Origin: Pseudoduganella sp.
GTDB taxonomy: Bacteria; Pseudomonadota; Gammaproteobacteria; Burkholderiales; Burkholderiaceae_D
Direction of reading: 5' to 3'
Assembly (NCBI GenBank): GCA_039593775.1
Contig: JBCNOP010000003.1
Span: 19,521-83,520 of the forward strand
Length of the DNA stretch: 64,000 nucleotides
The position numbers and the translations under genes are program-made. The notes under the pieces were generated by a model. That model saw only the letters and a list, made by a program, of their open reading frames with translations. It was not told the origin of the DNA and did not search any database. Shown here piece by piece: positions 507 to 20,033 of the stretch. The stretch's first letter is position 1; each line of letters begins with the position of its first letter.

Positions 507-892
507 CGGAAGGTCAGGAACTTATGGCCGAAATAGCTGGTCACTACCGGTACCAGTACACCAGCCAGGTGCGCCAACGCCTCGGCGTGCTGCACGATGC
601 CGAGCGACGGCAGCACCCAGCGCGCCAGCAGCAGGCTGATGGCCAGCGTCTGCAGCACGGCCAGCACGTTCACGCCGACAAACTTGCTGACCTGGGAGGC
701 CAGCGCTCCGTCCTGCGCCTTGAACACATGGCCGCGCATCAGGGTGAAAGCGACCAGCATGCCGACTAGATAGGCAAAGAACACCGCCGGTGCGTAATCG
801 AGGAAGGTGCTGAACACGAAGCGCGAGCCGAAGTTTGCGCCTGCGGCGATGCCGCCGGCGACCAGGAAACGCAGGAACTCTTTATTCAGCAT
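503..892 (-). CDS. gtrA: GtrA-family polyprenyl-phosphate-sugar flippase
   Basis: 129 aa, 4 TM; starts '[10 protein letters not shown]', has 'HVFK', ends '[11 protein letters not shown]'. Confidence 0.85.
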
Positions 893-2180
893 GGGCCGCC
901 ATCTTCGCCATATTGCGGCCGAAATCGATGCTCTCCGAGATGCCGCGGTCTTCCGGATAATAGTACGAGGTATCCGCCACCCACAGCCCCTTCACCGGCA
1001 ATGCCACCGGCGGCAGCTTGTCCAGGTAGCCCGGATCGCAAATCGGCTGCGCATAACGGTAACGGCTGGCACGCATGTCGAGGAAGTCTTCGTCGCGCAG
1101 GGCCGGGTTGATCTTCTTCAGGTAGCTGCGCACCTTGTCCAGGAAGACCTGGTCGGCATCGGCGAATTTCGGATGCTCGCCCGGCATGTAGAACGGCACA
1201 TAGGTGATGTGCTCGTCGAGCGGGCGCAGGTTCGAATACTCGACCAGGCCCGGGATGTCCATCTCGGGATCGTTGGTGTTGAGCCAGAAGTTTTCCGTCA
1301 CAGCCTTGCGCAGCTTGGCAATCACGCATACCACAGCGATGTTTTTCACAGCCTGGAACTTGCCCAGCACTTCAGGCGGCAGGTCCGGCATCACGCGCGG
1401 CACGTACGGCAGCGGGATGGTGCTGACCACCTTGTCGAAAGCCTCGAACTTGCCGCCGGCCTCGATGCCGCGCACCTGGCCCTGCTCCATCACGACCTTG
1501 CTGGCCGGCGTGGACAGGCGCACTTCGCCGCCGTGCTTGACGATGTCGTCGCGCATGGCGTTGAGCAGCGTCTCCGAGCCGCCATCGAGGTAGCCCAGCT
1601 TCTCTTCGAACAGGCTGGCGCGCGAAGTGCCGATGCGGCGGATGCGGCTCCAGATCCAGGCCGCCGACAGGTTGCTGCTGTAGTCGTAGAACTTGTAGTC
1701 GAACAGGCGGCGCCACAGCACTTCCCAGGCTTCCTCGCCGACCCAGCGGCGGATCCAGCCGGTCGCTTCAACATTGTCGAGCGGACGCCATTCTTCGCGC
1801 TTGCGCTTGGTGGACAGGAAGGCATGCAAGCCATAGCGGAACTTGGCGATCGGGCTCAGGCCGCGGAACTTCAGCAGCGCGAGCGGGTTGCCCCAGGGCT
1901 GCAGGCGGTTCTGGTACCAGTAGCCCATCTTGGTGGCGACCCAGTGCATCTTCGACTGCAGGCCCAGCTCGTCCAGCACCTGCAGGAAGCCGGTATCGGA
2001 GATGCAGTGGAAGTGGTAATAGCGCTCGATCGACAAGCCTGAAAAATCGAAAGCGGCTGCCATGCCGCCGACGCGGTCATCGGCTTCGAACACCACCGGG
2101 TGGTGGCCATCTCGTGCCAGTTGATACGCGACCGCAAGCCCCATCGGCCCGGCACCCAGGACAGCAATTCGTTGGCCCAT
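882..2180 (-). CDS. FAD-dependent oxidoreductase (amine oxidase/protoporphyrinogen oxidase-like fold) in a glycan locus
   Basis: GAGPMG dinucleotide-binding motif, '[10 protein letters not shown]', 'ERYYHF', C-terminal '[10 protein letters not shown]'. Confidence 0.8.
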
Positions 2181-2182
2181 AG

Positions 2183-3130
2183 TCAGAATTCCAGAATAAT
2201 CGAGTTGTAACGCGCGTCGTTGAACGTCGCATCAAGGGCTTTGTCGAACGGCGTGTAGGGAACGCCGAACTTGCCGGGCCAGTCGATCACTTCGAACTCG
2301 TCCTTGGCGCTCAGCGCAGTAAGTTGCTGGGTGGTGAATGGCGGTTTTTTATCAAACAGCGACCAGGTCCAGATCAACGCATAGAACAAGCCATAAGGGA
2401 TCTTGACGATAGGCGTCCTGGTGCCAGTGGTCTTCTTGATCATGCGGATGATGTCGATGTAGTCGATCTTTTCATGGCCTGAAATATTGAAAATGCCGCC
2501 CGCAATGCGCTGCTCGAAACAGCTGATGATAATGTCCGAAAAATCGCGCGCCCACAGCGGCTGGCGCATGTAGCGACCGTGCCCTGGTATCGGGAATACC
2601 GGTACCTTCTTCATAAAGCGCGACAGCCAGCCCAGGTGTTTCCGGTCGAACCAGCCAAACATCAAGGTCGGGCGCAAGATCGGGCACTCGATGCCGCTGG
2701 CAAGGACCACTTGTTCCTGCTCGATCTTGCTGCGCGTGTAAAAGTCGTCTGCGACCGAACATACGACCGACGAACTGATATGTACCAGGTAGGGCTGCTT
2801 CGGGCTCGCCTTGATCAAGTCAAGAATATGTTTGGTCGAATCGATGTTATTGCGCTGGAAGTCCCTGTAGTCCAGGCCACCTATCTGCGCTTGCAGCATC
2901 AGCACCACATCAGCGCCATCGAAATGGCGCATCCATTCGCCGGGTTCGGCCAGGTCGGCGTACACGCAAGTAATACCGGGCTGTGCCTTCTTCAAGATAT
3001 CGAGGTTGGCCTGATGCTTGTCGAGCACAACCAGATTAGTGTAGCCGCGGTCAATCAAGCGTGCCACCAGGTTTTGGCCCACCAGGCCAGCGCCACCAGG
3101 CAAAAGTATTTTTTGGTCGAGAGAACTCAT
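2183..3130 (-). CDS. NAD-dependent epimerase/dehydratase (extended SDR)
   Basis: GGAGLVG, 'HISSS', YTRSK (YxxxK). Start moved to ATG 3130 (MSSLDQK). Confidence 0.85.
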
Positions 3131-3170
3131 AAACAATCCTGTATAAAGATAATCACTTCGCGGCGACCGA

Positions 3171-4814
3171 TCAGTCGCTCTTGATGGCGACAGCCGACCA
3201 TTCGCCCCAGCCTTGCCCGGTGTCACTGATGCGCAGTGTGAACTCTTCCGGCAAGCGTTGATTTGCGAATTCCAGTGTCACCCAATCAGAGGCCTTGGGC
3301 AGTTGCGCGGAAAACTCGCGCTCATGGCCAACGACCTGCATCGTTTGTCCGTCGCGTCCTGGGCCCGAACGATACAAAATACTGCCGCCACGGCGCACTT
3401 TCAGCAGTACTTCGCCAGTGGCGGCGTCGCCACGCTCCGTATAGCTGCCCAGCACCCGGTATCCTTCAAGCGTTGATTTCGCAAAATCCGTGCCGTCCAT
3501 CGTGCTGCTTACCAGTTCTGCATGCCCTGCAGAGGGTCGTTGCGGGAGGGCCGTGTAAGCGAACAGCGGCGGCACAGTTTGCGCCACGCCATCAAACAAT
3601 GCGCGCCCGGTGAGCGCCCGGCAATTCTCGCCACTCAAGAGTAGTTCCCATGCCCGGTTACGGTTGCCATCGAAATGCACAGGCAGCGCATAATTCGAGA
3701 AGTACTGACAGCTCAGCAAGTGTTCGCGCCATTGCAAATTGTCATGGCTGCGCGACCAGACCGGCACGGCATTCGCTACTGCAACGGCCAACAAGGCGCC
3801 CATCAGGGCCCGTGCCGTGGTCCTGGTCAAGCCAGCGCCAAACTGGATCAAAACCCAGAACAGCAAGATGAACGGGAAGAAGAAGTAGCGTGGCCCGGCC
3901 CAGTGCGGATGCATAATTGCAGGATCGACACGCGCTACCGACAGGCCGATTGCCCCCAGCAGCAGGTACATCAGCACCCAGGCACTGACACGCACTCGAG
4001 ACCGGATCAGCCACATTGCCGTCAGCCCCGTTAAACCGACACCAACAATCCACAATCCTGGAATCGTACGAAGCAAATTACCAATCAAGAAATTGCCAAA
4101 GAATGTAGGGACAACATTCAGGAGCACAGACTTGATTGGCGGTACACTGCCCGCAGAGCCCGCAACCATGAAGTATACCTGCACTGCAGTGACCAGAGTC
4201 GCTACTACAGCAAGGACCAGTTCGACCCGCTGGCGACGATACATCGCGGCACGCAGCCACAGCACAGGCAGCACCATCACGATGACCGGCGAGGACAGCC
4301 CTGCGAGCAACAGGAACAGCAAGCGCCAACCCAATGCCGGCGTTTGCTCGTCCCATAGCGCCAGCAAGAACAACAAGATCGAGGCCCACCAAAAAGTGTA
4401 AAGCGGTAGCGCGAACACTTCCGGATCACATGGGATCACAAAGATCGACAGCGCGCACAGCGCCTTGGCCTGCAATTTGGTCGGCGACATCGCAATGGCA
4501 ACACCCACCAGAGCGATGAACAGCGCCGACAGCATTGTACTCACCATCGGGTAAGCGGCCGCCGACAAGGTCATCGACAGCATGCTGATCAATTTCGGCA
4601 CCGTGACGAGATAGCCATTGACTGGCACGATCAGCGATGACCAACCCTGTTCGACAAATGCCCGGATGATCTGCGTACCATCTTCGTCCCAGACCTGGGG
4701 AGACGTAAATTGCATGCTGCGGCGGCTTGCCAGCAGCAATACAAATACGAGCATCATGAGAATGCCACACTGCCAACGCGGCAAGCGCTCTCGCAAGGAA
4801 GAGAAATACATCAT
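3171..4814 (-). CDS. Polytopic membrane protein, putative GT-C glycosyltransferase with C-terminal periplasmic domain
   Basis: About 10-11 hydrophobic segments; acidic 'WDEDG' in the first external loop; 'GPRYFFFP'; soluble C-terminal domain; located inside the lipid-sugar donor operon. Confidence 0.6.
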   Translation of the reverse strand: MMYFSSLRERLPRWQCGILMMLVFVLLLASRRSMQFTSPQVWDEDGTQIIRAFVEQGWSSLIVPVNGYLVTVPKLISMLSMTLSAAAYPMVSTMLSALFIALVGVAIAMSPTKLQAKALCALSIFVIPCDPEVFALPLYTFWWASILLFLLALWDEQTPALGWRLLFLLLAGLSSPVIVMVLPVLWLRAAMYRRQRVELVLAVVATLVTAVQVYFMVAGSAGSVPPIKSVLLNVVPTFFGNFLIGNLLRTIPGLWIVGVGLTGLTAMWLIRSRVRVSAWVLMYLLLGAIGLSVARVDPAIMHPHWAGPRYFFFPFILLFWVLIQFGAGLTRTTARALMGALLAVAVANAVPVWSRSHDNLQWREHLLSCQYFSNYALPVHFDGNRNRAWELLLSGENCRALTGRALFDGVAQTVPPLFAYTALPQRPSAGHAELVSSTMDGTDFAKSTLEGYRVLGSYTERGDAATGEVLLKVRRGGSILYRSGPGRDGQTMQVVGHEREFSAQLPKASDWVTLEFANQRLPEEFTLRISDTGQGWGEWSAVAIKSD

Positions 4815-4878
4815 GAGTCAGTACGGCCTTTCAAATTGTTTAAAGAGTTTGCTCGCAAAGGTTGTTCAATTTCCCATA

Positions 4879-6588
4879 TCAAGTTGGCGTCTGGAGCTTC
4901 AACTGGCAAACCGGCCCGCCAGGTCCCTCTCCACGCAGCGACAGCTCCGTTCCCGCCGGTGTCGCCAACAAATAGCCTTGATAACCCGCCCGGCGCGCCG
5001 CAGGAGATATAGCTGCAGCGACGTCATCCCTCTGTTTGCCAGTCATCGCATAACCAAACTGTTTGCCATCAGCCCCCAAGATACGCACCGCTTGCGGCAC
5101 CGTGACGTTTGCAGGATCGTAGAGCCAGCCAATGACACGCAAGAAGCGGCTATCGCCCTCAATTACAACTGCAGTATCCAAGGCGCCTTGGCACGCAGGC
5201 AGCGCAACAGGCTCAAACACCGTGCCCATTTGTGCACGCACCCCGCGATAGGGAAACAGGCCAAAGACTGAGCGCCCCTTGTCGGCAGGCTGCTCGGCGA
5301 CCGCAATAACATCGGTGGTGGGGAATACATGGCCAATTTGTGCCTGGTCCTTGACGCGCATTTCAATCGCCAAGGCGGCAACGGCTCGCTCATACATCTC
5401 ATCTTCGTGCGATTGCAGCGCCTTCACCTGGTAAACCAGCATCAGCAAGGTCAGCACTGCCAAGCCCCCCCATGTCCAGCGGCGGCGCTGAGCTGGCAGC
5501 GCAAGCAGCGCTGGAGCATACAGGATCGCCAATGCCGCCCAGGCCATCAGGGCCGGCGTGGTATAGCGGTGGGACAAAGCCTGGTCCAGGCCAAAGAGCG
5601 CGCGCCCCCCCGCGGTGCCAAGTGCTGTGCCGACGATATAGGCGATGAAGGACAACAGCACCAGTTGCACGCTTGCGTGGCGCGACTGGCGCAATTGCAG
5701 CCAGGCGAACCTGGCTGAGCATGCCAAAAAGAACAGACCAGCAAGCTGGGCCATCACCTTGCCGAGCCCTCTTTCGCCCATCGCCAAGTTGAATGGCCCT
5801 CCGAGGTACATAAAGACGTAACGGAACACCCGACCTGGATGTTCACGCAGGGTCAGAGTCACGGAGCCATGCCCGCCAGGCGAAACAAATGCGTGGAAAT
5901 AGGCAAACACCACGACTGCAGCCAAGATCACCAGCACGCTGATGCGCCGCACGCCCTGACGCGTCAGGATGGCATATGCCGCCATGAGAGGCAGGGCCAG
6001 GATGCCATTTGCCATCGTGCCGATGCACAGGACACCAAGCAGGCAAGCCAGGGCGAACAGACCGGTCCCGCCTTGCACCGAGCGGTACAGTACGTACAAG
6101 GCCGTAAGTGGAAGCAACTGAGCCAGGATGAATTGGCTCTGGAAGCCCCACGTCAGGTTTTCATGCTGGCTCCAGAAAAACAGGCAGACAACGAGGAAAG
6201 CCGCCAACGCGTGCTTCTCGAGCGTGCGCTGTGACGTCGCCGTAGCTTCGCGCAGCATGCGGTAGAACAACACACTGCCAGCGGCCACCAACAGGTAATT
6301 CACGACAATCAGGAACCAACCAGTACCACTGAACCAGCTCAAGTCAGCCCAGAAAAACAGGCGCGAAAGTACAATCCGGTGCTCATTATGCTGCCGCCAC
6401 CACGCCTGCCAGCCGTTGCTTGCGACTTCGTCGAGAAATGGCAGGTAGCCGTCCCACATATCCCAGAATGGCACCACAGAGTAGCCGCGAACGCCCCCAA
6501 CGATCGCCAGCGCGACAAAAAGCAGCGCCAGGCTGGTGAGGCCATGGCGCAACAGGCGCTGCTGCGGCGCGGTGGTTGCGACGCTCAT
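4879..6588 (-). CDS. Polytopic membrane protein, putative GT-C glycosyltransferase with C-terminal periplasmic domain
   Basis: 'PFWDMWDGY...QHNEHRIV' first loop, 'ENLTWGFQSQF', 'SHRYTT', many TMs. Start ATG 6588 overlaps the SDR stop (ATGA). Confidence 0.65.
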   Translation of the reverse strand: MSVATTAPQQRLLRHGLTSLALLFVALAIVGGVRGYSVVPFWDMWDGYLPFLDEVASNGWQAWWRQHNEHRIVLSRLFFWADLSWFSGTGWFLIVVNYLLVAAGSVLFYRMLREATATSQRTLEKHALAAFLVVCLFFWSQHENLTWGFQSQFILAQLLPLTALYVLYRSVQGGTGLFALACLLGVLCIGTMANGILALPLMAAYAILTRQGVRRISVLVILAAVVVFAYFHAFVSPGGHGSVTLTLREHPGRVFRYVFMYLGGPFNLAMGERGLGKVMAQLAGLFFLACSARFAWLQLRQSRHASVQLVLLSFIAYIVGTALGTAGGRALFGLDQALSHRYTTPALMAWAALAILYAPALLALPAQRRRWTWGGLAVLTLLMLVYQVKALQSHEDEMYERAVAALAIEMRVKDQAQIGHVFPTTDVIAVAEQPADKGRSVFGLFPYRGVRAQMGTVFEPVALPACQGALDTAVVIEGDSRFLRVIGWLYDPANVTVPQAVRILGADGKQFGYAMTGKQRDDVAAAISPAARRAGYQGYLLATPAGTELSLRGEGPGGPVCQLKLQTPT

Positions 6589-7331
6589 ATGTCCATCCGG
6601 TTGAAAACGAAGCGCGGCAGGTTGGCAATGATCAGCATGATCAGCGCCCACTTGCCCGGCGTGTACAGCACCGGCTGGCCTTTGGCGGTCGCCGCCACGA
6701 TCTGGGCCGCGACGGACTCGACGCTGGCCATGCCGCGCTGTGGCATGTGCGCCGTCATCGGTGTCGCGGTCGGGCCCGGCTTGACCAGCACCACTTTGAC
6801 GGCGGTGCCGGCCAGGCGGTGCTGCAAGCCTTCCGCGTAGCGCGTGACCAGGCCCTTGGCGGCGCCGTAGACGTAATTGGATTTGCGGCCACGCTCGCCG
6901 GCCACCGAACCGATGATGGTCAGAGTGCCGCGGTTGACGCGCTGCATGTGGCCGGCAAACGCTTCGGCAAACAGGGCCGGCGAGACGCCGTTCACATCCA
7001 TGGCCTCGGCCGCCAGCGCCAGGTCGTCCTGGCAGGCTTGCTGGTCGGGCAGCGAACCGTGCGCCACCAGCACGATGTCCGGCACGCCGCCGGCAGCAAT
7101 GCCGTCCACCGTGGCGCGGATCTGCTGCGGATCGCTGAAGTTCGCTTCGATGACGGTGACCTTCGATTGCGGGCTGCGCACGCGCAGGTCGGCTGCCACG
7201 GCTTCGGTCTTTTCACGGTTGCGGCCCAGCAGGGTCAGGTCGAGCGCCTGGCCTGCCGCCCACAAACGGGCGCAGTGTTCCGCCATGGCGGAAGTCGCGC
7301 CGACGATTACGATTTTCTTGTTAGCAGACAC
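6585..7331 (-). CDS. DprE2-like SDR (polyprenylphosphoryl-2-keto-pentofuranose reductase)
   Basis: GATSAMA; 'GSVAGERGRKSNYVYGAAK' matches the DprE2-type signature; directly downstream of the DprE1 homolog. Confidence 0.85.
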   Translation of the reverse strand: MSANKKIVIVGATSAMAEHCARLWAAGQALDLTLLGRNREKTEAVAADLRVRSPQSKVTVIEANFSDPQQIRATVDGIAAGGVPDIVLVAHGSLPDQQACQDDLALAAEAMDVNGVSPALFAEAFAGHMQRVNRGTLTIIGSVAGERGRKSNYVYGAAKGLVTRYAEGLQHRLAGTAVKVVLVKPGPTATPMTAHMPQRGMASVESVAAQIVAATAKGQPVLYTPGKWALIMLIIANLPRFVFNRMDI

Positions 7332-8621
7332 TTATTTCCCCATCAAGCGACGCGACATCGCGGAACTGATGCCAGGGTCGCGGTATTGTAAAAATTCGGC
7401 AAGGCGCGGATAACCGGCCTCGAACAAGGCGCGCGGCATGCGCGCATCCTTGGCCATGTAGATGCGGCCGCCCGCTTCGGCAACGATGGCGTCGAGCCGT
7501 TCGAACAGGCGCAGCGTGCGTTCGCCGCGGTTCGGGAAGTCGAGCGCCAGCGTGACGCCAGGCTGCGGGAAGCTCAGCATGCCCAGCGCTTCGCGTTGGC
7601 CGAAAGTCTTCAGCACAGCCAGGAAGGAACCCTCGCCGCTGTCGCTGATCGCTGCCAGCATGGCCTGCACCGCAGCGCGGCCCACCGCGCGTGGCACCAC
7701 GCTCTGGTACTGGTAGAAGCCGGTGGGACCGTACATCCGGTTCCACTCGTGCAGGTTATCCAACGGATAGAAATAGCTCTCGTAATGCGCCACGCCCTTG
7801 CCGGCCCGGCTCTTCTGCAAGTTGTAATACGCAAAATTGAACGGCGCCAGCGACAGCTTGTTCACCAGCGACAGCGGCGGCACGAAAGGCATGGTGCGCG
7901 CGCGCGGCGCCGGCGCTTCCTTGCCCTCGATGGCGCAATGGTTGGCGCGCAGGAAGATGCCGCGCCCATTGCCGGACAGGCAGTCAATCCACGACACCGT
8001 ATGCTCCCAGTCCGCTTCGGAAGCATCGGACAGTGCGAAGAATTCGTCGAGATTAGTGTACGGCACGGTCTCGGTTTCCAGCCAGGGGCCGGCAACGCGG
8101 CGCAGCTGGATTTCAGCCGTGATAATCACGCCTGTCAGGCCCAGCCCGCCCACCGTGGCCGCAAACCATGCAGTTTCTTGTTCCGGGCCGCACAGGATGC
8201 GGCTGCCATCCGTGCGCAGCAATTCAATGCGGCGTACATGGTCGCCGAAGGAACCAACCGCATGATGGTTCTTGCCATGCACGTCGTTGGCGATGGCGCC
8301 GCCGACGGTGACCAGCTGGGTGCCCGGGGTCACCGGCAGCATCCAGCCGCGCGGAATTGCCAAGCGCTGGATATCGCGCAGCAGGACCCCGGCCTCGCAG
8401 CGCAGCAAGCCAGTTTCCTGGTCGAAGCTGATGAAGCGGTCAAGCCCGGTGGTACGCCACAGCACCCCTCCCGGATTGAGGCAGACATCGCCATAGCTGC
8501 GGCCCATGCCGTGCGCCAGGCCCGGCGCACCGGCCTGCAGCTGGCGCGCCACTTGCGCGCGCTCCGCCAGCGGACGCACCTCGTGCTCCCACTGCCCCAG
8601 CCGTCCCCAGGAAGAAACCAT
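7332..8621 (-). CDS. DprE1-like FAD-linked oxidase (polyprenylphosphoryl-ribose 2'-oxidase)
   Basis: 'GMGRSYGD', 'PVTPGTQLVTVGGAIANDVHGKNHH', 'SFLAVLKTFG', 'LSFP..G.TLALDFP', 'GGRIYMAKDAR'. Start ATG 8621 (TAATG overlap with UbiA stop). Confidence 0.9.
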   Translation of the reverse strand: MVSSWGRLGQWEHEVRPLAERAQVARQLQAGAPGLAHGMGRSYGDVCLNPGGVLWRTTGLDRFISFDQETGLLRCEAGVLLRDIQRLAIPRGWMLPVTPGTQLVTVGGAIANDVHGKNHHAVGSFGDHVRRIELLRTDGSRILCGPEQETAWFAATVGGLGLTGVIITAEIQLRRVAGPWLETETVPYTNLDEFFALSDASEADWEHTVSWIDCLSGNGRGIFLRANHCAIEGKEAPAPRARTMPFVPPLSLVNKLSLAPFNFAYYNLQKSRAGKGVAHYESYFYPLDNLHEWNRMYGPTGFYQYQSVVPRAVGRAAVQAMLAAISDSGEGSFLAVLKTFGQREALGMLSFPQPGVTLALDFPNRGERTLRLFERLDAIVAEAGGRIYMAKDARMPRALFEAGYPRLAEFLQYRDPGISSAMSRRLMGK

Positions 8622-10054
8622 TACCACGGCCACCCTGCCGCGCCCACTGCCAGGACTGCAGCGAAGCAAACGCCGGCGACCAGGCTGGCTTTGTCCTTGA
8701 CCGCAAAGACCAGTGGGTCATCATGCATATGGCCGCGATGCGCCTGCATCCACATCCAGCTGACCCAGAACAGCATAACCGGCACCGCGCCCCATACGAT
8801 TTCAGGCGTGCGGTACAACATCACCACCGCATCGCTATTCAGGTACAGCGCCAACACCACCAGCGCAGCGTAGCCCGCACTGACGCCCAGCATCTGGATC
8901 AGCGGGGCATCGGTGGTGTAGTAGCCGCGGCCATGCGCCTTCTTTTTGCCGTGCAAGACTTGCACCTGCAGTTCCGCATAGCGCTTGACAAAGGCCAGCG
9001 ACAGGAACAGGAACACAGAGAAGGCCAGCAGCCAGAACGACAACGGCATGCCCAGTGCGGCAGCGCCGGCAATGATGCGCAAGGTATACAGCAGCGCCAG
9101 CGTCACGCAATCGACCAGCATCAGCCGCTTGAGCAGCCACGAATAGGCGCAAGTCAGCAGGAAGTAGCCGGCCAGCCAGGCGCAGAAACTGCCGCCGACC
9201 TGCCAGGCCACGGCTGCACTGGCAAGCAGCAGCAACGGTGCGCACAGCACGCCCTGCCAGGCCGGCACCTGGCCGCTGGCGAAGGGGCGGTTGCGCTTGC
9301 GCGGGTGCTGGCGATCGCTCTCCAGGTCGAGCAAATCATTTGCGATATACACCGAGGAAGCGCACAGGCTGAAGGCAATGAACGCCAGCAGCAGCGGCAT
9401 CCAGTTGCCCGGGTCCATGAATTGATGGGCGGCGAACAGCGGCACGAACAGCAGCAGGTTCTTCAGCCATTGGTGCACGCGCAGCACGCGGCGCCAGGCG
9501 GTGAAGCCGGCGCCCGGGGCGGCGAAGGAACGCTCCACTTCGCAGCATTTGGCTGCACGCCGCGCCAACTCGGGCGGCGCGTTGACCACCACGGCGCGGC
9601 GCGCGCTGCGCCACACCGGCAGGTCGGCATGCGAGTTGCCGGCATAGTCGTAGCCGGCCTGGCCGAAGCGCTGCACCAGCGCGTCCGCCTTGTTCTTGCC
9701 TGCCAGGTTGACCTGGCCGTCGCTGGCCATGACTTCGTCGAACACGCCGAGGTGGTCGGCGATGGCGTTGGCGATCGACTGGTCGGAGGCGGTGCACAGG
9801 ATCAGCTTGCGGCCATTGCTGCGCTCCTGGCGCAGCCACTCCAGCAAGGCGGTGTTATACGGCAGCGAGGTCGCATCAAATTCGCCATGCTGCGCCAGGC
9901 GGCGCTTGAGCACGGCCTTGCCGCGCGCCAGCAGGAAAGGGATGCGCAGCACTTCGAATGGCTTGTCGCGCAAGGTGCGCAGCGCCGACTCGTGCAGCAT
10001 ATCGGTGTGGATCAACGTACCGTCGAGGTCGATGATGAGAGGCAGCATGCTCAT
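8621..10054 (-). CDS. HAD phosphatase / UbiA-family polyprenyl-phosphate phosphoribosyltransferase fusion
   Basis: N-terminal HAD motif 'IDLDGTL...CTAS...GNSHAD'. C-terminal 'RVHQWLKNLLLF', 'YIANDLLDLESDRQHPRKRNRPFASG' and 'HDDP' typical of DPPR-synthase-type UbiA proteins. Confidence 0.9.
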   Translation of the reverse strand: MSMLPLIIDLDGTLIHTDMLHESALRTLRDKPFEVLRIPFLLARGKAVLKRRLAQHGEFDATSLPYNTALLEWLRQERSNGRKLILCTASDQSIANAIADHLGVFDEVMASDGQVNLAGKNKADALVQRFGQAGYDYAGNSHADLPVWRSARRAVVVNAPPELARRAAKCCEVERSFAAPGAGFTAWRRVLRVHQWLKNLLLFVPLFAAHQFMDPGNWMPLLLAFIAFSLCASSVYIANDLLDLESDRQHPRKRNRPFASGQVPAWQGVLCAPLLLLASAAVAWQVGGSFCAWLAGYFLLTCAYSWLLKRLMLVDCVTLALLYTLRIIAGAAALGMPLSFWLLAFSVFLFLSLAFVKRYAELQVQVLHGKKKAHGRGYYTTDAPLIQMLGVSAGYAALVVLALYLNSDAVVMLYRTPEIVWGAVPVMLFWVSWMWMQAHRGHMHDDPLVFAVKDKASLVAGVCFAAVLAVGAAGWPW

Positions 10055-12566: not shown

Positions 12567-12728
12567 ATGCCTCCATCCGCCTCCACGGCTTCGGCACGGC
12601 CAATCTACCGGATTATAGTTTTCGGGTTTCTGGTCAGCACCTGGACATTTTTTCCCGGCTGGATGAGTAACGACTCCTTGGTCCAGTACAGAGAGGGGCG
12701 CGCCGGTATATTTAACAGCTGGCACCCA
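12567..12728 (+). pseudogene. Truncated 5' remnant of a GT-C-like membrane protein, paralogous to the C-terminal half of 16954..19152
   Basis: FFPGWMSNDSLVQYREGRAGIFNSWHP aligns without gaps to [27 protein letters not shown] (15/27 identical). Similarity stops after WHP; the ORF ends at 12782. Confidence 0.8.
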
Positions 12729-12734
12729 AAAAGG

Positions 12735-12763
12735 GTGACGCCCAGGCGCCCGCAGCTTATAAT
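12735..12763 (+). promoter_or_regulatory. Putative sigma70 promoter of the 12.8-20 kb operon
   Basis: GTGACG (12735-40), 17 bp spacer, TATAAT (12758-63). Confidence 0.65.
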
Positions 12764-12823: not shown

Positions 12824-13849
12824 ATGGCTTTCTATCCTGTCTTTCTATCGGTTGTATTTGTGGTCCGCAACCAGGGCGCGCAATTGGAGGGCGTTCTCAG
12901 GGCAGCCAGCCAGCAAGTGGCTTCGTATGCCAGCGACTATGAGCTGATCATCGTCGACAATGCCTCCGATGACGAGAGCGTGAGCCTACTCAAGACACTC
13001 ACCGCCCAGCAGGGCTTGCCAAACCTGCAAGTTTATGCTTTGACCAAGGAAGTGAACAGCGATACGGCGGCATGGGTTGGCCTGGAGAATGCGTTGGGAG
13101 ATTTTGTCGCAGTGATTGATCTTTTGATCGATGACATCGCATTCCTGCCCCAAATGCTTGAGAAAGCCGTCAGTGGTGCCGACGTGGTATTCGCCAACAA
13201 TACCCAAAAGCCACGCCAAAGCTTGCCATATCGTCTGGCCAATAGTGCATTCCACTCGCTGTACAAGAGCTTCAATGGCATCCACCTGGCAAAGGAAGCG
13301 CCGAGTTACAGGCTGCTCAGCAAGCGGGTCATCAATTTCATCCTGCAGCATCCGCAGCCTTCCGTCACCTACCGACACCTGCCTGCGACCGGCGGTTTTG
13401 CTCGTGTCAATATGGAGTACAGCGCGACGCCCATCGCGGGCGGCATGAAAAAGCTCGGCGAATCGATCGATCGCGGCATGCGCCTACTGGTTTCAACAAC
13501 CCAGGCGCCAATGCGCCTTGTGACGAGCCTGTCCCTGTTCGGCGCGGTTGCCAACCTGGTGTATTCGATCTATGTCGTTGCAATCGGCATCTTCAAATCC
13601 GACGTTGCGCCAGGCTGGATCAGCCTGTCGCTTCAACAGTCCGGTATGTTCTTCCTGATTTCGCTCGTACTGCTGGTGCTGGGTGAGTACATCCTGCACA
13701 TGGCAACCTTGTCGAATGAAGGCCCGCTCTACCATGTGGGACAGGAATTCACGAGCGCCCGCATGACCCGCAAGGAAAAACTGAACATTGAAACAGTGAA
13801 TGCCCAGCCTGTGAGCGTCGAGCATCAAGCTGCACGGGTGGGTACCTGA
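12824..13849 (+). CDS. GtrB/ArnC-like GT2 with two C-terminal TM helices and degenerate catalytic motifs
   Basis: 'LIIVDNASDD', 'GDFVAVIDLLIDD' in place of the usual DADLQD, C-terminal TMs 'APGWISL...LGEYI'. Alternative GTG start at 12791. Confidence 0.8.
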   Translation: MAFYPVFLSVVFVVRNQGAQLEGVLRAASQQVASYASDYELIIVDNASDDESVSLLKTLTAQQGLPNLQVYALTKEVNSDTAAWVGLENALGDFVAVIDLLIDDIAFLPQMLEKAVSGADVVFANNTQKPRQSLPYRLANSAFHSLYKSFNGIHLAKEAPSYRLLSKRVINFILQHPQPSVTYRHLPATGGFARVNMEYSATPIAGGMKKLGESIDRGMRLLVSTTQAPMRLVTSLSLFGAVANLVYSIYVVAIGIFKSDVAPGWISLSLQQSGMFFLISLVLLVLGEYILHMATLSNEGPLYHVGQEFTSARMTRKEKLNIETVNAQPVSVEHQAARVGT

Positions 13850-13857
13850 CTGTGAGC

Positions 13858-14988
13858 ATGACGGACGTAGATGCGGTCATCATTGGCGGCGGGTTTTATG
13901 GCGCAGCCATCGCCATCTACCTGGCCAAGGAGCGCGGCCTCAAGCGTGTGATCCTGCTCGAGCGGGAAGCGCGACTGCTGTGCCGGGCTTCGTATCACAA
14001 TCAGGCCCGTGTCCATAATGGATACCACTACCCGCGCAGCTTCACCACGGCTTTCCGCAGCCGCGTCAACCTGCCCCGTTTCGTTCGCGACTGGCCCGAG
14101 GCCGTCAAGCAGGATTTCACCAAGCTCTACGCCACTGCGCGGCGCAATTCAAAAGTGACAGCCAAGCAGTTCGAGCGCTTTTGCCACGAGATTGGCGCCA
14201 GGATCGAGCCGGCCGAAGCTGGCCTGCAAAAGTTGTTCGAACCGCGTTTGATCGAAGCGGTGTTCCTGGTGGAAGAATATGCGTTTGACTCCACTCGCCT
14301 TGCCGCCTGGGCACAAAAAGAGCTTCAGGAATCCGGCGTCGAAGTGCGCCTGTCGACCAGGGCAATGTCCGTCGCGCGCGCTGCGCAAGCGGGACTGCAG
14401 GTAACCACCTTGAATGAGAGCGGCGACTCGGATTCCTTGCGTTGCCGTTATCTGTTTAACTGCACCTATAGCGGGCTGAACCAACTGTCCGGCGAATTCC
14501 CTGGAACCCGGACCCGCTTGAAACACGAAATCACGGAGATGGCCCTGGTCAAGGCCCCGCCGGCATTGGAAGGACTTGGCGTGACCGTGATGGACGGCCC
14601 GTTCTTTTCCATGATGCCCTTCCCTGCCCGCGGCCTGCACACGCTTTCCCATGTGCGCTACACGCCTCATTTCAGCTGGCAGGACGAAGGCGGGGATGAC
14701 CCGTACAGGAAACTGCAGGAATATGCCCGCGACTCGCGCGTCGACCGCATGCTGCGCGATGTGGGCCGGTATATGCCATCGGTGCTCGACGCCAAATACG
14801 CCGACTCGCTGTTTGAGGTCAAAACGATTTTGCAAAAGAATGAGGGCGACGATGGCCGTCCAATCCTTTTCGAACAACACGCTGAACTGCCTGGCTGCTA
14901 TTCGGTGCTGGGCGGAAAGATCGACAATATTTACGACGTGCTTGAAAAACTCGAAACTGAAAAATTTGAGAACGTTGCGGAGCGATAA
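13858..14988 (+). CDS. FAD-dependent oxidoreductase (DAO/LhgO-like fold)
   Basis: GGGFYG, 'ASYHNQARVHNGYHYPRS', C-terminal 'GGKID'. Alternative GTG start at 13852. Confidence 0.8.
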   Translation: MTDVDAVIIGGGFYGAAIAIYLAKERGLKRVILLEREARLLCRASYHNQARVHNGYHYPRSFTTAFRSRVNLPRFVRDWPEAVKQDFTKLYATARRNSKVTAKQFERFCHEIGARIEPAEAGLQKLFEPRLIEAVFLVEEYAFDSTRLAAWAQKELQESGVEVRLSTRAMSVARAAQAGLQVTTLNESGDSDSLRCRYLFNCTYSGLNQLSGEFPGTRTRLKHEITEMALVKAPPALEGLGVTVMDGPFFSMMPFPARGLHTLSHVRYTPHFSWQDEGGDDPYRKLQEYARDSRVDRMLRDVGRYMPSVLDAKYADSLFEVKTILQKNEGDDGRPILFEQHAELPGCYSVLGGKIDNIYDVLEKLETEKFENVAER

Positions 14989-15774
14989 ATGAAAAAGAAC
15001 GCATTGATTGGCTATTCCGGTTTCGTCGGAACTACGCTGCTGAAGCAAGCATCCTTCGAGGCTTTGTACCGTTCGACCAATATCCAGGAAATCGACAACC
15101 AGCAATTCGATGTCGTCGTCTGTGCCGGCGCCCCTGCACAGAAATGGATCGCGAACGGCAATCCGGCAGAAGACAAAGCCAAGATCGAAGGGCTGATCAA
15201 GCACCTGAAGACCATTACCTGCGATACGTTTGTGCTGATCAGCACCGTTGACGTGTTCAAGAATCCGCAAGGGGTGGATGAAGATACTGCTGTTGACGAA
15301 GACGGGCTGCACGCCTATGGATTGCACCGCCGCCTGCTGGAGAAGTTTGTTGAGGAACACTTCCCCAAGCATTTGATCGTCCGCCTGCCTGGCCTGGTCG
15401 GCCCAGGCTTGAGAAAGAACGTTATTTTTGACTTCCTGAACAACAATAACCTGCACGCGATCGAGAGCCGTGGCGTGTTCCAGTTCTACCCGATGGTGAA
15501 CCTGTGGTTCGATATCCAGACCGCGCTGGAAAAAGGACTGAAGCTGGTACACCTGACCGCCGAGCCGGTCAGCGTGGCAGACGTTTCGCTGCAGGGCTTC
15601 GGGCGTTCCTTCACCCAGGAGCTGGCCAACGCGCCGGCCCGCTATGACATGCAGACACGTTATGCCGGTCAGTTCGGCACAGGCGGGCGCCATCAATACA
15701 GTGCGCGCGAAACGATTCTGGCCATCCGGGCTTATGCACAGTCCGAGCCGCGCAAGGCGGGGGATGCTGCATGA
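14989..15774 (+). CDS. Atypical NAD(P)-dependent SDR / sugar epimerase-reductase
   Basis: GYSGFVG, 'ISTVDV', YGLHR in place of YxxxK, 'VRLPGLVG'. Confidence 0.75.
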   Translation: MKKNALIGYSGFVGTTLLKQASFEALYRSTNIQEIDNQQFDVVVCAGAPAQKWIANGNPAEDKAKIEGLIKHLKTITCDTFVLISTVDVFKNPQGVDEDTAVDEDGLHAYGLHRRLLEKFVEEHFPKHLIVRLPGLVGPGLRKNVIFDFLNNNNLHAIESRGVFQFYPMVNLWFDIQTALEKGLKLVHLTAEPVSVADVSLQGFGRSFTQELANAPARYDMQTRYAGQFGTGGRHQYSARETILAIRAYAQSEPRKAGDAA

Positions 15775-16604
15775 GGCTCGCCATTTCCAATATTGCATGG
15801 GACGTCGTGGAAGACGAAGCCCTGGCATCGCTGCTGAAGAAATTCAGCATCGATGCCATTGATATCGCGCCCGGAAAGTATTTCCCGGAACCGGCCAAGG
15901 CAAGCGACGCCGATATCCACGCCGTCAAACAATGGTGGGCCGAGCGCGGCATCGAGATTACAGGAATGCAGGCGCTCCTGTTTGGCACCGTCGGCCTGAA
16001 TGTGTTCGGGCCGGCGGAAGTCCAGGATGCCCTGTTGGCGCACCTGGCCGCGGTTTGCCGCATCGCTTGCGGGCTGGGTGCTACGCGCCTGGTGTTCGGT
16101 TCGCCGAAAAATCGCGATCGCACCGGCTTGAGCGATGAACAGGCCTTGGCGGACGCGGTGGCATTCTTCCGGCGGCTCGGCGATATTGCCCGCGAACAGG
16201 GCGTAATCATCTGCCTGGAGCCGAATCCACGCTGCTATGGCGCCAATTTCATGACCACCAGCGCGGAAACGGCGCAGGTGGTCAGGAGCGTCGCCCATCC
16301 GGCTATCCGGATGCAGCTCGATACCGGTGCGCTGACTATCAACGGCGAGTCGGCTGCGACGGTGCTTGAAGACTGCGCGGAACTGATCGGCCATGTGCAC
16401 GTCAGCGAGCCGAACCTGGTCCCGATTGGCGACCTCGATACCGACCATGGCCGCCTGCACGAGGCGATGGCCAGGTTCATCCCCGCCCACGTCGCCTCGA
16501 TCGAAATGGTCGCCACCAAGGACGAGCCCCACCTTGCCGCCATCGAGCGCGCACTCACCCACGCTAACAATTTCTATCGACCCGTAGCAGGTACCTCAGC
16601 ATGA
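15771..16604 (+). CDS. Sugar phosphate isomerase/epimerase (xylose-isomerase-like TIM barrel)
   Basis: Metal-ligand pattern 'LEPN', 'LDTG', 'HVHVSE', 'SIEM'; 'VFGSPKNR'. Confidence 0.85.
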   Translation: MRLAISNIAWDVVEDEALASLLKKFSIDAIDIAPGKYFPEPAKASDADIHAVKQWWAERGIEITGMQALLFGTVGLNVFGPAEVQDALLAHLAAVCRIACGLGATRLVFGSPKNRDRTGLSDEQALADAVAFFRRLGDIAREQGVIICLEPNPRCYGANFMTTSAETAQVVRSVAHPAIRMQLDTGALTINGESAATVLEDCAELIGHVHVSEPNLVPIGDLDTDHGRLHEAMARFIPAHVASIEMVATKDEPHLAAIERALTHANNFYRPVAGTSA

Positions 16605-16957
16605 AGTGGATCATTCTGTTAACCGGCATTCTTGCGAATGCCTCCGCCAGCGTGCTGGTCAAAATTGCGATGATGCCACCTCGCAAATTTCCGTCGCCAG
16701 CCGATCCGATGGCTGCGCTCAGCAACTGGCCGTTCTGGCTGGGCCTCGGACTGTATGGCGCAGCGTTCCTGCTTTATGCCGCAGCGCTGGCACGACTGCC
16801 CTTGAATGTGGCGCACCCGATCCTGACTTCGGGCGCCGTTGCTACGGTCGCACTGTTCTCCATTTTCCTGTTCCGTGAACCGTTCCACTGGACCACGGTC
16901 GCCGGCATCGTCCTGGTGATTTCAGGTGTAACACTGATTACGGCACGCGTCGCATGA
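16601..16957 (+). CDS. SMR/EamA-fold 4-TM protein, ArnE/ArnF-like flippase candidate
   Basis: 118 aa; 'LPLNVAHP', 'FREP', 'GIVLVISGV'. Asn at the EmrE Glu14 position (ILAN vs ILAE). Confidence 0.75.
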   Translation: MKWIILLTGILANASASVLVKIAMMPPRKFPSPADPMAALSNWPFWLGLGLYGAAFLLYAAALARLPLNVAHPILTSGAVATVALFSIFLFREPFHWTTVAGIVLVISGVTLITARVA

Positions 16958-19152
16958 ATCACATGAATAACTCAGAAAACATCAAACCGGCGGGCCGCGA
17001 TACCTGGGAAGTGCCTGCAATGGAAGTGCCGCTTTGGCAGGGCAAGAAACACGCTTACTGCGTGGTCATTCCAGTGATCAACGAAGGCGACCGCATCCGC
17101 AACCTGCTGAAGCGGATGCAGGCCTGCCAGATCTCGGCAATTGCCGACATCATCATTGTCGATGGCGGCAGCACAGACGGCTCGATGGAACTCGAAGCGC
17201 TCAAGCGCTTCGATGTGAACGGACTGGTCGTCAAGAAGGGTCCGGGCAAATTGAGCGCCCAACTGCGTTGCGCTTATGCGTTTGCGCTGGACCAGGGGTA
17301 TCAAGGCATTGTCACGATTGACGGCAATGACAAGGACGACCCTGATGCCATTCCCAAGTTCATTGAGGCACTGGAAGCAGGCGTCGACTTTGTGCAGGCC
17401 TCCCGCTTCATTTCCGGTGGTGTAGCCGAGAACACGCCAAAGTCGCGCGACTTTGCGATTCGCTTTATTCACGCACCGGCACTCTCGATGAGTTCTGGCT
17501 TCAAGTGGACGGATACCACTCAAGGCTTCCGTGCATACAGTCGCAAGATGCTGCTGGATCCGGCCATCGGCACATTCCGCGACATTTTTCGCGACTACGA
17601 ACTCCTCGCTTATCTTTCGCACCGAGTTCCACAATTGAACTATCGTTGCCTGGAAATCGCAACGGTCCGTCGCTATCCGAAGGGCGAGGTCCCAACCAAG
17701 ATTTCGGCATTTCGCGGAAATCTAAAAGTCCTGCGGACACTCGCTCACGCCTGCTTGGGGCATTACAACATCAAAAAAAAAAGCCTTAACGACGGATACC
17801 CCAGCCCAGCGCTAGCATATCTGCTCTGCGCATTGGGTTTCCTGTTCTCGGTGCTGGCCTTTTTCCCAGGTTGGATGAGCCCAGACTCTTTCAACCAATA
17901 TCATGACGCTAAGTTTGGTGAGTACAGCGACTGGCATCCGGTACTGATGGCATGGCTATGGAGTAAGTTCGACAGAGTCTATCCCGGGCCGGCGCCAATG
18001 CTGCTGCTGCACTTGGTGCTGTACTGGTCGTCCTGGCTGCTTATTTCGCTGGCTAGCAGACGCTGGCTGCGCTACAGTGCCTACCTTGTGCCACTACTCG
18101 GTTTCTGGCCCGGCCTCGCTTATCCCTTGGGGCAGATCTGGAAAGACATCGCATTTGCGACCACCGTCTTCTTTGCATGGGCATATCTTTTTTATGTTTA
18201 TGCCCTATCGAGAAAGCTTGGCTGGCGCGATCTTGGGTTGGTGCTTCTCCTCTCAGCCTATGCGGTCGGAGTCAAAACAAATGGACTGGTTGTCCTGCCA
18301 TTTCTGTTTGCTTTTGCAGCGTATCTGCATGCTGATCGTAACGTTCGCTGGAAACGGGTACTGGCGTTTTCGGTCGCAATGCCACTCCTGTCACTGACAC
18401 TGGTGAGCGGCATTGCATCACGTTTAAAGATCGTCAAGACTTCGCCATTCCAGTACACCCAGACCTACGACCTCTTGGCCATATCGGTCAAAACTGGCGA
18501 AGTATTGCTACCTGGGTACATTACAAAGAAAGTCGGTAACACTCCCGACAAGCTGCAACCACTGTACTGGGTGGGTGGTAATAACGTGCTCTTTTATGGT
18601 GCGGCAGGAACAATGACTACTCTGGATCCGGGCGAGTTAGCCGATCTGCGCCACCGCTGGCAAGCCGCATTACGAAATCACCCCGCCCAGTACTTGGAAC
18701 ATCGTTGGGCAAACTTTAAAGAGTTAATGCGCTGGCAAGCGGCCACCCCAGCCTATATCGCGAATCCACGCATCGATGAAAATCAATATGGATTCCTGTT
18801 CTCGAACAATTCGTTCAGTAACTGGCTTTCCAGCTCGCCGGAAAAGCATCCGAAGATGTTTTTCCCCTGGATCTATGTCGGCGGTCTGCTGTTTTCGTCA
18901 CTGGCGCTGTTTGCAGCGGCACGTAAGCATCGCTTCCTGATTGCCTGCGTCTGCGGGTCGGCAGTTGCCTTTATCGTGCCGCATATTTTCATTGCACCGG
19001 CATCTGATTATAGGTATTTATATTATGTCTATTTCTGCTCGGTAGCCGTTGTGTTCTTCTTGCTTGCCGCTACCGCCAATCGTTTAATATTGGGCAACAC
19101 GCATTTGCGCCGACCTGACCAAGATTCAACCTCCCCTTCAAATTCACTATGA
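16954..19152 (+). CDS. Fusion of a DPM1-like GT2 (polyprenyl-phosphate glycosyltransferase) and a polytopic GT-C-like domain
   Basis: About aa 30-272: 'VIPVINE', 'VDGGSTDG', 'IDGNDKDD', 'QASRF', '[10 protein letters not shown]'. After the KKKS linker: '[14 protein letters not shown]', 'IWKD', multiple TMs, 'DYRY'. Confidence 0.85.
17773..17782 (+). repeat. A10 homopolymer at the GT2/GT-C domain junction
   Basis: atc AAAAAAAAAA gcc ttaa; the longest A run I noticed inside a gene in this GC-rich window. Confidence 0.9.
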
Positions 19153-20033
19153 AACAAATTAAGAAAGCAGTTTTCCCGATTGCTGGCCTTGGAACCCGCT
19201 TCCTGCCGGCTACTAAAGCATCCGCAAAAGAAATGCTGCCGGTGGTTGACAAGCCGCTCATTCAATACGCTGTCGAAGAGGCCTACGCCGCCGGCATCCG
19301 CCACATGGTCTTCGTGACCGGCCGAACCAAACGCAGCGTGGAAGATCACTTCGACACGGCCTACGAACTGGAAAATGAGCTGGAGCTGGCCGGCAAGACC
19401 GCATTGCTGAACGTTGCTCGCAGTATCGCGCCGGACGATATGGTGTGCACGTACGTGCGACAGCCGCGCGCCTTGGGCCTCGGCCATGCCGTTTTGTGCG
19501 CGAAAGAACTGGTGGGTGCCGAGCCGTTCGCCGTGCTGCTGGCCGACGACCTGATGGTTGGCAAGCCAGGCATCATGGCACAGATGGTGGAACAGTTCGC
19601 AGAGTGGCAGACCAGCATCCTGTCGGTACAGGACGTACCCCGCGACCAAACAAACCGTTACGGCATCGTGAGCGGTACTTCGATTGCCGAGGATATCGTT
19701 GACGTGACCGGCATTGTCGAAAAACCGGCTCCGGAAGACGCGCCAACCACGCTTGCGGTAGCCGGCCGCTATATCCTGACACCGGGCATTTTCAAGGAAC
19801 TGGAAAACGTGCAGCGCGGCGTCGGCGGCGAAATCCAGCTCACCGATGGCATCGCGCAACTGCTGCGCCGTGAAAAAGTATTCGCTTACCGTTATAAAGG
19901 CATGCGTTATGACTGCGGCAGCAAATTGGGCTTCCTTCAGGCCACGGTGGACCTGGGAGAACACCATGATGAAGTCGGGGCAGAGTTCGCTGCATGGCTG
20001 GAGCAACGCTGCTCGTCTTCAATAACGAGCTAA
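19149..20033 (+). CDS. galU: UTP-glucose-1-phosphate uridylyltransferase
   Basis: '[31 protein letters not shown]', 'VEKP', 'GEIQLTD', 'YDCGSK'. Confidence 0.97.

Follow-up and report, generated by a model that had tools for sequence, protein, structure and literature searches.

A stretch of 64,000 nucleotides from a Pseudoduganella sp. genome (hereafter the window) contains an operon of seven open reading frames (ORFs), designated g1 to g7, which together encode a candidate system for tailoring a sugar on a lipid carrier and attaching it as a side branch to O-antigen (Table 1). The junctions measure 2 nt between g1 and g2 and 0 nt between g2 and g3, and the remaining four are 4-nt overlaps. 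Seven coupled genes on the strand opposite to the rest of the locus had been described in a first-pass annotation of the window, and all seven ORFs were indeed found on the plus strand; the ATG that it chose as the start of g1 is backed by orthologue alignments. The operon forms a plus-strand island inside a minus-strand O-antigen locus of ABC-transporter (ATP-binding cassette) type. On its right lie, on the minus strand, genes for a 1035-residue methyltransferase-GT1-GT2 protein (GT, glycosyltransferase family), Wzt and Wzm, followed by rmlBDAC and more GT2s, and on its left, also on the minus strand, a double GT2 and then a pentofuranose module with HAD-UbiA, DprE1-like and DprE2-like proteins. 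G+C content is 54-58% in the operon region and 63-70% across the window's second half. Promoter-like sites were no more numerous in the region than in shuffled controls, and position is the sole support for the one listed ahead of g1.

Table 1. Positions of the operon, its genes and domains, and other features of the window.
Feature	Position	Strand	Remark
Operon g1-g7	12824-20033	+	Seven translationally coupled ORFs
Promoter-like site, GTGACG-17-TATAAT	12735..12763	+	60 bp upstream of g1; 10/12 consensus positions
g1, GT2a, GtrB-like GT2	12824..13849	+	PF00535, E 2.8e-12; two C-terminal transmembrane helices
g2, DAO-family FAD-dependent oxidoreductase	13852..14988	+	PF01266, E 1.6e-23
g3, short extended-SDR-like NAD(P) enzyme	14989..15774	+	Sub-threshold SDR match in family scan
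g4, xylose-isomerase-like TIM barrel (AP_endonuc_2)	15771..16604	+	PF01261, E 1.3e-20
g5, SMR/DMT-like protein with four transmembrane helices	16601..16957	+	Pfam TMEM234, EamA and Multi_Drug_Res matches
g6, whole gene	16954-19152	+	GT2 plus 458-residue membrane domain
g6 N-terminal domain, GT2b, soluble Dpm1/ArnC-like GT2	16954..17775	+	PF00535, E 8e-12
A10 tract	17773..17782	+	GT2b/GT-C linker; only homopolymer of at least 8 bases in the window
g6 C-terminal domain, predicted GT-C fold	17809..19152	+	Fold model; Asp311 invariant
g7, GalU	19149..20033	+	TIGR01099, 357.7 bits versus cut-off 326.8; 4-nt overlap with g6
DprE1-like gene	7332-8669	-	Pentofuranose module
DprE2-like gene	6585-7331	-	Pentofuranose module

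The putative tailoring enzymes are the products of g2, g3 and g4. For g2, an oxidoreductase dependent on flavin adenine dinucleotide (FAD) and belonging to the DAO family, NCBIfam comes closest with its models for L-2-hydroxyglutarate oxidase and GlpA, each of which scores far under cut-off. Approximately 120 columns are invariant among ten orthologues with identities down to 45%, and a role as sugar C-OH oxidase is proposed. The g3 product resembles the extended short-chain dehydrogenases/reductases (SDRs). In an alignment of 46 family members, the glycines of its GxxGxxG motif (G8, G11 and G14), S85 and Y110 are invariant, and the position of the catalytic Lys is taken in 46/46 by an invariant Arg (R114), giving YxxxR. 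The Rossmann motif and SDR fold are present without the classic triad residues YxxxK. The family profile matches RmlD, UDP-glucuronic acid (UDP-GlcA) 4-epimerase and GalE, and the AlphaFold2 (AF2) model (predicted local distance difference test, pLDDT, 96.0) finds GalE and RmlD as its best Foldseek matches (E 5e-12, TM 0.73). Measured against the RmlD and GalE chains that it matched, g3 is short by approximately 30-60 residues. The enzyme is a candidate keto-sugar reductase.

The g4 product is a triosephosphate isomerase (TIM) barrel, scoring 74.6 bits for PF01261 versus a gathering cut-off of 31.1. Its metal ligands were identified as E150, D184, H210 and E245, and all four are kept in homologues at approximately 32-41% identity; the E-D-H-E set claimed at first reading therefore holds up in distant relatives. 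The first three of these residues line up with their counterparts among the psicose 3-epimerase ligands. The protein aligns with ketose 3-epimerases and with YcjR, a 3-keto-D-glucoside 4-epimerase (E 0.008), and gives weak NCBIfam scores, all far under cut-off, for IolO (45.9 bits), psicose epimerase (35.2 bits) and IolE (21.5 bits). Relatives of 70-91% identity occur in many Proteobacteria. We propose that g4 is either a dehydratase or an epimerase acting on a keto-sugar.

A survey of 2007 representatives of the g3 family revealed that these enzymes are joined to one another in nature. One protein is a TIM-DAO-SDR fusion of 903 residues (P0296), two are SDR-TIM fusions of 529 and 532 residues (P0280 and P0325), and one is a DAO-SDR fusion of 631 residues (P0222). 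On the strength of these natural fusions, the FAD, SDR and TIM enzymes are assigned to one pathway, just as the first-pass annotation had supposed in placing the three extra enzymes on a single route. A further protein (P0217) joins the SDR to a dehydrogenase of the Gfo/Idh/MocA family, and no FAD enzyme is present in the recovered part of its locus. The SDR-TIM and SDR-Gfo fusion loci also carry GT2, GT-C-like or Wzy-like genes; the contig with the triple fusion contains only one other large protein, with a faint GT61 match.

The remaining genes point to a system for loading, flipping and transferring the sugar. The N-terminal domain of g6, GT2b, matches the dolichyl-phosphate-mannose (Dol-P-Man) synthase of P. 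furiosus (5mlz, E 2.9e-9) and ArnC, and is proposed to be an undecaprenyl-phosphate (Und-P)-hexose synthase. Its identity is 66-76% in most full cassettes (65% in locus L013) and 46-49% in distant variants, and in many loci it is encoded by a separate gene. For the C-terminal domain, a profile search against the PDB gave no match and Pfam gave no family, as was also the case in Pfam for the variable membrane proteins at other loci; its identification as GT-C comes from fold comparison only. The alignment-based AF2 model has a pLDDT of 93.5, and in VIA its best 20 matches are all GT-C proteins, with Z from 18.2 to 9.4 and unrelated folds from Z 6.5. These include Pmt1/2 (Z 18.2), ALG12 (16.3), ArnT (15.8), AglB (15.1) and PglB (14.8), as well as AftB, STT3, ALG9, Emb and AftD. 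Foldseek likewise placed mostly GT-C proteins at the top (AglB, Pmt4, STT3, ArnT, Emb and ALG9); membrane proteins unrelated to these begin at rank 14. A GT-C enzyme, merely assumed at first reading, is hence backed by a fold model. Asp311 (17884-17886; D36 of alignment A2) is invariant and lies in the first periplasmic loop of the domain; the domain itself is proposed to be the acceptor-specific side-branch transferase.

The join between GT2b and the GT-C domain is natural. An assembly error caused by an indel at the A10 tract was considered and rejected: many orthologues of 693-737 residues, in Cupriavidus gilardii, Plesiomonas shigelloides, Achromobacter and Alcaligenes, have the same join and equal linker length. 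Stand-alone forms of the GT-C protein (434-484 residues) exist too.

For the g1 product, GT2a, the match to the GtrB structure 5EKE extends across the entire protein, transmembrane helices included (E 3e-13). Its DxD motif is degenerate, with D-L-L (D-P-L in most orthologues) in place of D117-A-D119 of GtrB, and Ser replaces the Asp of the GtrB motif GDFR; this degenerate motif is kept in orthologues, and versions from Enterobacterales score under the Pfam GT2 cut-off. That the FAD enzyme constantly comes with a GtrB-like membrane protein of degenerate motif suggested the conjecture that GT2a is an adaptor presenting the lipid-linked substrate to the FAD enzyme. A complex prediction for the two proteins scored 0.29 against a mark of 0.32, which counts neither for nor against binding.

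The small protein g5 resembles drug/metabolite transporter (DMT) and small multidrug resistance (SMR) proteins. Its NASAS motif and Asn13 in the first transmembrane helix, which carries no acidic residue, are invariant in ten orthologues. The membrane-embedded Glu14 of SMR exporters such as EmrE is missing and, with the equivalence of Asn13 and Glu14 judged by eye, the replacement of this Glu by Asn was correctly recognized from the start. NCBIfam scores are 29.4 bits for ArnF (cut-off 99) and 24.6 bits for ArnE (cut-off 92), and the GtrA family (PF04138) was not matched in the Pfam scan. By sequence, g5 thus looks like a distant relative of ArnE/ArnF, present as one gene instead of a pair, and is proposed to be the flippase for the Und-P-sugar.

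GalU (g7) is the sole galU match in the genome assembly, which is 87% complete; the possibility of a second, dedicated galU was rejected on finding this single copy. In most other loci galU is not next to the cassette. GalU therefore stands outside the conserved set, and on this point the first-pass annotation is not sustained. The three-component periplasmic glycosylation system proposed there fared better, in that the GT2, small flippase and GT-C all hold; the operon encodes, however, two polyprenyl-phosphate-type GT2s, the first with the degenerate DxD.

Comparison of loci revealed a core of six functions in fixed order (GT2a, FAD, SDR, TIM, SMR and GT2b), with 60-86% identity. Loci with this core were found in Pseudomonas (L001-L003, L005 and L007), Aromatoleum (L004), Methylobacter (L006), Tenderia (L008), Cupriavidus (L009) and Rhodanobacter (L011); a scan of a genome collection with the TIM barrel had yielded at least nine loci. 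Culturable carriers of the cassette include Pseudomonas proteolytica DSM 15321, Aromatoleum buckelii and Plesiomonas shigelloides GCA_009183495.1. The membrane protein that follows the core falls into at least five classes without mutual BLAST similarity, ranging from 442 to 1057 residues. By analogy, a conserved core with an exchangeable transferase resembles the GtrC pattern. The cassette lies inside or beside an O-antigen cluster in Pseudoduganella, Pseudomonas, Plesiomonas, E. coli and Franconibacter.

Within the cassette, two sub-modules can be distinguished by sequence: FAD/GT2a and SDR-TIM-SMR-GT2b. The former is divergent (42-45% and 22-27% identity, respectively) and reversed in order in Plesiomonas, E. 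coli, Franconibacter and a distant metagenomic locus; the latter stays 61-77% identical in Plesiomonas and E. coli, the two in which it was measured. In a Geobacter locus (L010) and in locus L026, only SDR-TIM-GT2b of the core are present in the recovered DNA. The SDR was detected in only four other genomes among 400 sampled from the phylum and in none of the sampled relatives from the genus, family and order, which marks the cassette as accessory and patchily distributed. Its wider family is very large and mobile: homologues of g3 number 5292 clusters (90% identity) at E <=1e-40 and 2007 representatives (50% identity) at E <=0.001.

A link to a defined sugar comes from E. coli. With the Plesiomonas version as blastn query, the cassette was found in 8 of 5426 complete E. 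coli genomes. In NCTC10973 (L027), it lies between gnd and ugd, directly after a wzm/wzt cluster of the O89/O101/O162 family, in the order FAD, GT2a-like, SDR, TIM, SMR, GT2b and GT-C. Every cassette protein of the window has an orthologue here, in near full-length tblastn alignments with identities of 43% (FAD), 26% (GT2a), 62% (SDR), 61% (TIM), 68% (SMR), 67% (GT2b) and 39% (GT-C). Judged on these alignments, the operon and the cassette between gnd and ugd in E. coli O162 are orthologues. The O162 antigen consists of the O101 backbone with a side branch of 4-deoxy-D-arabino-hexose (Liu et al., 2020, PMC7685785). The rfb clusters of O101 and O162 are 99.8% identical, and the genes between gnd and ugd are near-identical except for an insertion sequence (IS) in the first gene of O101; the O162-specific branch was attributed to these genes, and the pathway of the sugar was called not yet identified (PMC7685785). 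Their role was still termed hypothesised in 2026 in work on O101/O162 as a serogroup pair common among bacteraemia isolates (PMC13168486). Among six E. coli genomes with an identical cassette, counted regardless of serotype, three have an IS4 insertion at the FAD gene's 5' end, and the gene is then annotated at 357 rather than 371 codons. The view that the system is undescribed stands insofar as no characterized pathway matches it; the E. coli O101/O162 orthologues had, however, already been put forward in print as candidate genes for making 4-deoxy-D-arabino-hexose (PMC7685785, PMC13168486). In full-text searches of the literature that combined the enzyme types of the cassette (GT2, FAD and TIM barrel) with its flippase and the undecaprenyl carrier, no publication on this gene set came up, and papers on the Plesiomonas O-antigen describe neither the cassette genes nor a matching sugar.

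A second correspondence concerns a Franconibacter-named locus, in which the cassette follows gnd. A 1473-residue methyltransferase-GT2 protein and a 607-residue HAD-domain protein stand ahead of it and two membrane proteins behind it, and these neighbours are read as putatively forming an O-antigen cluster like that of K. pneumoniae O7. A KpO7-like backbone has been reported for F. pulveris O1, with a side chain of two 4-deoxy-D-arabino-hexose residues (PMC11231755). The biology of the cassette is probably that of an O-antigen side branch. In Citrobacter, O-antigens that contain 4-deoxy-D-arabino-hexose have been on record since the 1980s. The sugar is reported in C. braakii PCM 1531 (O6) and in O4, O27 and O36, and the O4 O-antigen is a polymer of it. 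The O4 cluster is without wzx, wzy, wzm and wzt (PMC6240886). These facts would fit periplasmic assembly from a lipid donor and are taken as a lead rather than a test.

Relative to glucose, 4-deoxy-D-arabino-hexose is inverted at C2 and C3 and has lost the C4 hydroxyl. DprE1 attacks C2, and IolE, which belongs to the same superfamily as the g4 TIM barrel, dehydrates inosose. Because the sugar needs both C4 deoxygenation and new stereochemistry at C2 and C3, a sequence of oxidation, dehydration and reduction is more likely, and the product is more likely a deoxy-sugar than a simple epimer. Elimination of the C4 hydroxyl needs a C3 carbanion, which in turn calls for a C2 carbonyl. An oxidise-epimerise-reduce route, as offered by the first-pass annotation, is thus disfavoured, and its alternative of a route to a ketose is not supported.

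The reading that we prefer, with a probability of roughly 0.55, is that the operon encodes a Gtr/Arn-like periplasmic glycosylation system with a sugar-tailoring module, whose product is Und-P-4-deoxy-D-arabino-hexose, destined for an O-antigen side branch. GalU would provide UDP-glucose (UDP-Glc), and GT2b would place the hexose on undecaprenyl phosphate, with the fusion to the GT-C domain tethering GT2b to the membrane. The FAD enzyme would oxidise a ring hydroxyl, most economically that at C2, as does DprE1, and GT2a, paired with it, may present the lipid-linked substrate. The metal-dependent TIM barrel would next take the C3 proton and eliminate the C4 hydroxyl, like IolE on inosose, to give a 4-deoxy-2,3-diulose. 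Reducing the carbonyls and setting the new stereochemistry at C2 and C3 would fall to the YxxxR SDR, perhaps with help from the reduced flavin. Finally, the SMR-like g5 would flip Und-P-4-deoxy-D-arabino-hexose; the GT-C domain would add the sugar as a side branch to the rhamnose-containing O-antigen after its export by Wzm/Wzt.

Several points weigh against this proposal. The sequence of g4 is nearer to the epimerases IolO and psicose epimerase than to the dehydratase IolE, and the structural relatives of g3, RmlD and GalE, act on nucleotide sugars rather than lipid-linked ones. The FAD/GT2a pair is only 43%/26% identical to the E. coli pair and in opposite order, and the product could therefore differ. 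The reason for two polyprenyl-phosphate-type GT2s is unexplained. The contrast between O101 and O162 is correlative, and insertion of an IS into the start of the set has a polar effect on all genes of the operon as well. Functions of the cassette genes are predicted and none has been assigned experimentally, those of the E. coli set included. Finally, the Aromatoleum cassette lies outside any visible O-antigen locus.

The first of these points bears on the possibility that the trio epimerises Und-P-glucose (Und-P-Glc) to gulose, allose or altrose without deoxygenation, with the epimer serving as the side branch. Such chemistry is known on free glucosides, in which YcjS is a glucoside 3-dehydrogenase, YcjR a 3-keto-glucoside 4-epimerase and YcjQ a guloside 3-dehydrogenase. 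The best scores of the TIM barrel are with epimerases (IolO, psicose 3-epimerase and tagatose 3-epimerase), and it matches YcjR too; the dehydrogenase fused to the SDR in P0217 is from the family of YcjS and YcjQ, and the FAD/GT2a block is unlike the E. coli version. Nevertheless, the sole structural correlate of the cassette is a 4-deoxy sugar, and g3, g4, the SMR protein and GT2b are 61-68% identical to their counterparts at the O162 locus, with a GT-C of the same family, all of which speaks for a donor that is identical or very similar. We consider simple epimerisation of this kind distinctly the less probable course.

A similarly low likelihood is given to tailoring on the nucleotide sugar, in which the trio would convert UDP-Glc or GDP-mannose (GDP-Man) in the cytoplasm and the finished sugar would then be loaded onto the carrier; the final sugar could be the same. 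The relatives of g3 in sequence and fold (RmlD, GalE and UDP-GlcA 4-epimerase) are enzymes of nucleoside diphosphate sugars, and the two GT2s could then serve different donors. Three observations speak for the lipid, none of them decisive: g3 is shorter than the RmlD and GalE chains, a GtrB-like protein anchored in the membrane always accompanies the FAD enzyme, and the only published tailoring steps known in such systems, DprE1/E2 and ORF13, are placed on a lipid-linked sugar (PMC11127046). On the single question of where tailoring occurs, we lean modestly towards the lipid.

An acceptor other than O-antigen (lipid A-core, periplasmic glucan or protein) is improbable, in spite of the Aromatoleum cassette among unrelated genes beside a transposase, an orphan GT-C paralogue (44% identical) among unrelated genes elsewhere in the genome and the great diversity of transferase classes, given the position of the cassette in or beside O-antigen clusters in five genera and the extra sugar of E. 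coli O162 on the O-antigen itself.

The proposed lipid-carrier system can be set against several known ones. The gnd-ugd set of E. coli O101/O162 is alike in the seven functions and in its neighbouring ABC-transporter O-antigen cluster with a terminating methyltransferase; it differs in having the FAD gene before the GT2a-like gene, GT2b and GT-C as separate genes and no galU, and in a backbone of GlcNAc/GalNAc rather than the rhamnose of Pseudoduganella. The GtrA/GtrB/GtrC systems of Shigella and Salmonella phages share the polyprenyl-phosphate GT2, the small flippase and the variable, acceptor-specific periplasmic GT-C, as well as the combination of conserved donor genes with an exchangeable transferase. 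In contrast to these, the operon has an SMR/DMT-like flippase instead of GtrA, two GT2s and three tailoring enzymes, and its sugar is probably not glucose.

YcjS/YcjR/YcjQ and IolE resemble the trio in placing an E-D-H-E TIM barrel that acts on a keto-sugar or keto-cyclitol between oxidation and reduction. They serve catabolism, however, with free glycosides or inositol as substrates; Gfo/Idh/MocA dehydrogenases stand where the operon has DAO-FAD/SDR enzymes, and their matches to g4 are weak. Auxiliary epimerases belong to the pentofuranose three-component systems of Citrobacter youngae O1/O2 described by Kelly et al. (2024, PMC11127046). These systems and mycobacterial DprE1/DprE2 are alike in reshaping a lipid-linked sugar by a keto route, followed by flipping and GT-C transfer. 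They differ in a donor made from phosphoribosyl pyrophosphate (PRPP) via a UbiA-type synthase, in a VAO-type FAD enzyme (PF01565) and in the lack of a TIM barrel. In the operon, g2 is of the DAO type (PF01266) rather than the VAO type and g3 is not a classical SDR, and the DprE1/DprE2 pairing is thus absent. By their defining sequence features, the operon does not appear to be a member of the DprE1/E2, GtrA or EmrE families. Other epimerases in O-antigen side-chain systems were not known to Kelly et al. (PMC11127046).

The candidate genes for 4-deoxy-D-arabino-hexose thus belong to a mobile cassette family of very large size, and the question of how this sugar is made is now testable, with the natural fusions supplying a concrete enzymatic hypothesis. 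A more far-reaching and quite tentative proposal is that the cassette represents an undescribed C4 deoxygenation of Und-P-hexose, present in thousands of bacterial genomes, with flavin-dependent oxidation at C2, metal-dependent 3,4-dehydration by the TIM barrel in the manner of IolE, reduction by the YxxxR SDR and GT2a as adaptor for the oxidase. If this is true, tailoring of hexoses on the lipid carrier would join the known sources of O-antigen diversity, and the cassette would offer markers for predicting O-antigen side branches from genomes as well as enzymes for rare deoxy-sugars.

Some members of the wider family have unusual settings. In the Geobacter metagenome-assembled genome (MAG; L010, 334-7377), a GT2 with transmembrane helices and a 407-residue membrane protein, GT-C-like by its transmembrane pattern and an ADE loop motif (by eye), accompany SDR, TIM and GT2b; an AMP-binding enzyme and a DltB-like MBOAT protein follow, and neither an FAD enzyme nor an SMR protein was seen in the recovered DNA. 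A 3.7-kb contig from a Thermoplasmata archaeon MAG (L012) carries TIM, SMR and GT2b 62-77% identical to the proteobacterial versions, reflecting either bin contamination or recent transfer. Homologues of g3 also occur on plasmids, for example on a 10.8-kb plasmid of Psychrobacter (61% identical) and in Azospirillum, Mesorhizobium, Cereibacter, Ruegeria and Sphingomonas, which fits a mobile cassette.

The A10 tract in the linker of g6 is not found in the fused orthologues, although their linker length is equal; in the fused gene of Plesiomonas, there is no A or T run of at least 7 at the join. Read from the sequence, one additional A would give a stop after codon 278, and stand-alone GT2b proteins measure 266-283 residues. 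A slip at the tract, whose length rests on a fragmented assembly (386 contigs), would then turn off the transferase only.

On the left side of the window, positions 503-10054 of the minus strand hold a system for a pentofuranose side chain like those that Kelly et al. (2024) reported. It comprises a HAD-UbiA fusion, a DprE1-like FAD_binding_4 protein and a DprE2-like SDR, as well as two large membrane proteins without a Pfam family, an extra SDR and an amine-oxidase-like flavoprotein. The O-antigen of this Pseudoduganella probably carries two different side branches, both added in the periplasm.

Two further traces of the GT-C family of g6 were detected. A remnant of a second gene lies at 12567-12728 on the plus strand and ends just ahead of the promoter-like site of the operon; 20 of 41 residues are identical across the first transmembrane helix and the PGWMSxDS...WHP loop (E 3e-14), and a whole-genome search finds it too. 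The orphan paralogue is full-length (G000:C325:26643-27911, minus strand; locus L036, 8614-9936), with a 440-residue ORF and unrelated neighbours (radical SAM, Hsp70-like/DUF3731 and ChaC). This paralogue might serve a second acceptor from the same lipid-linked donor.

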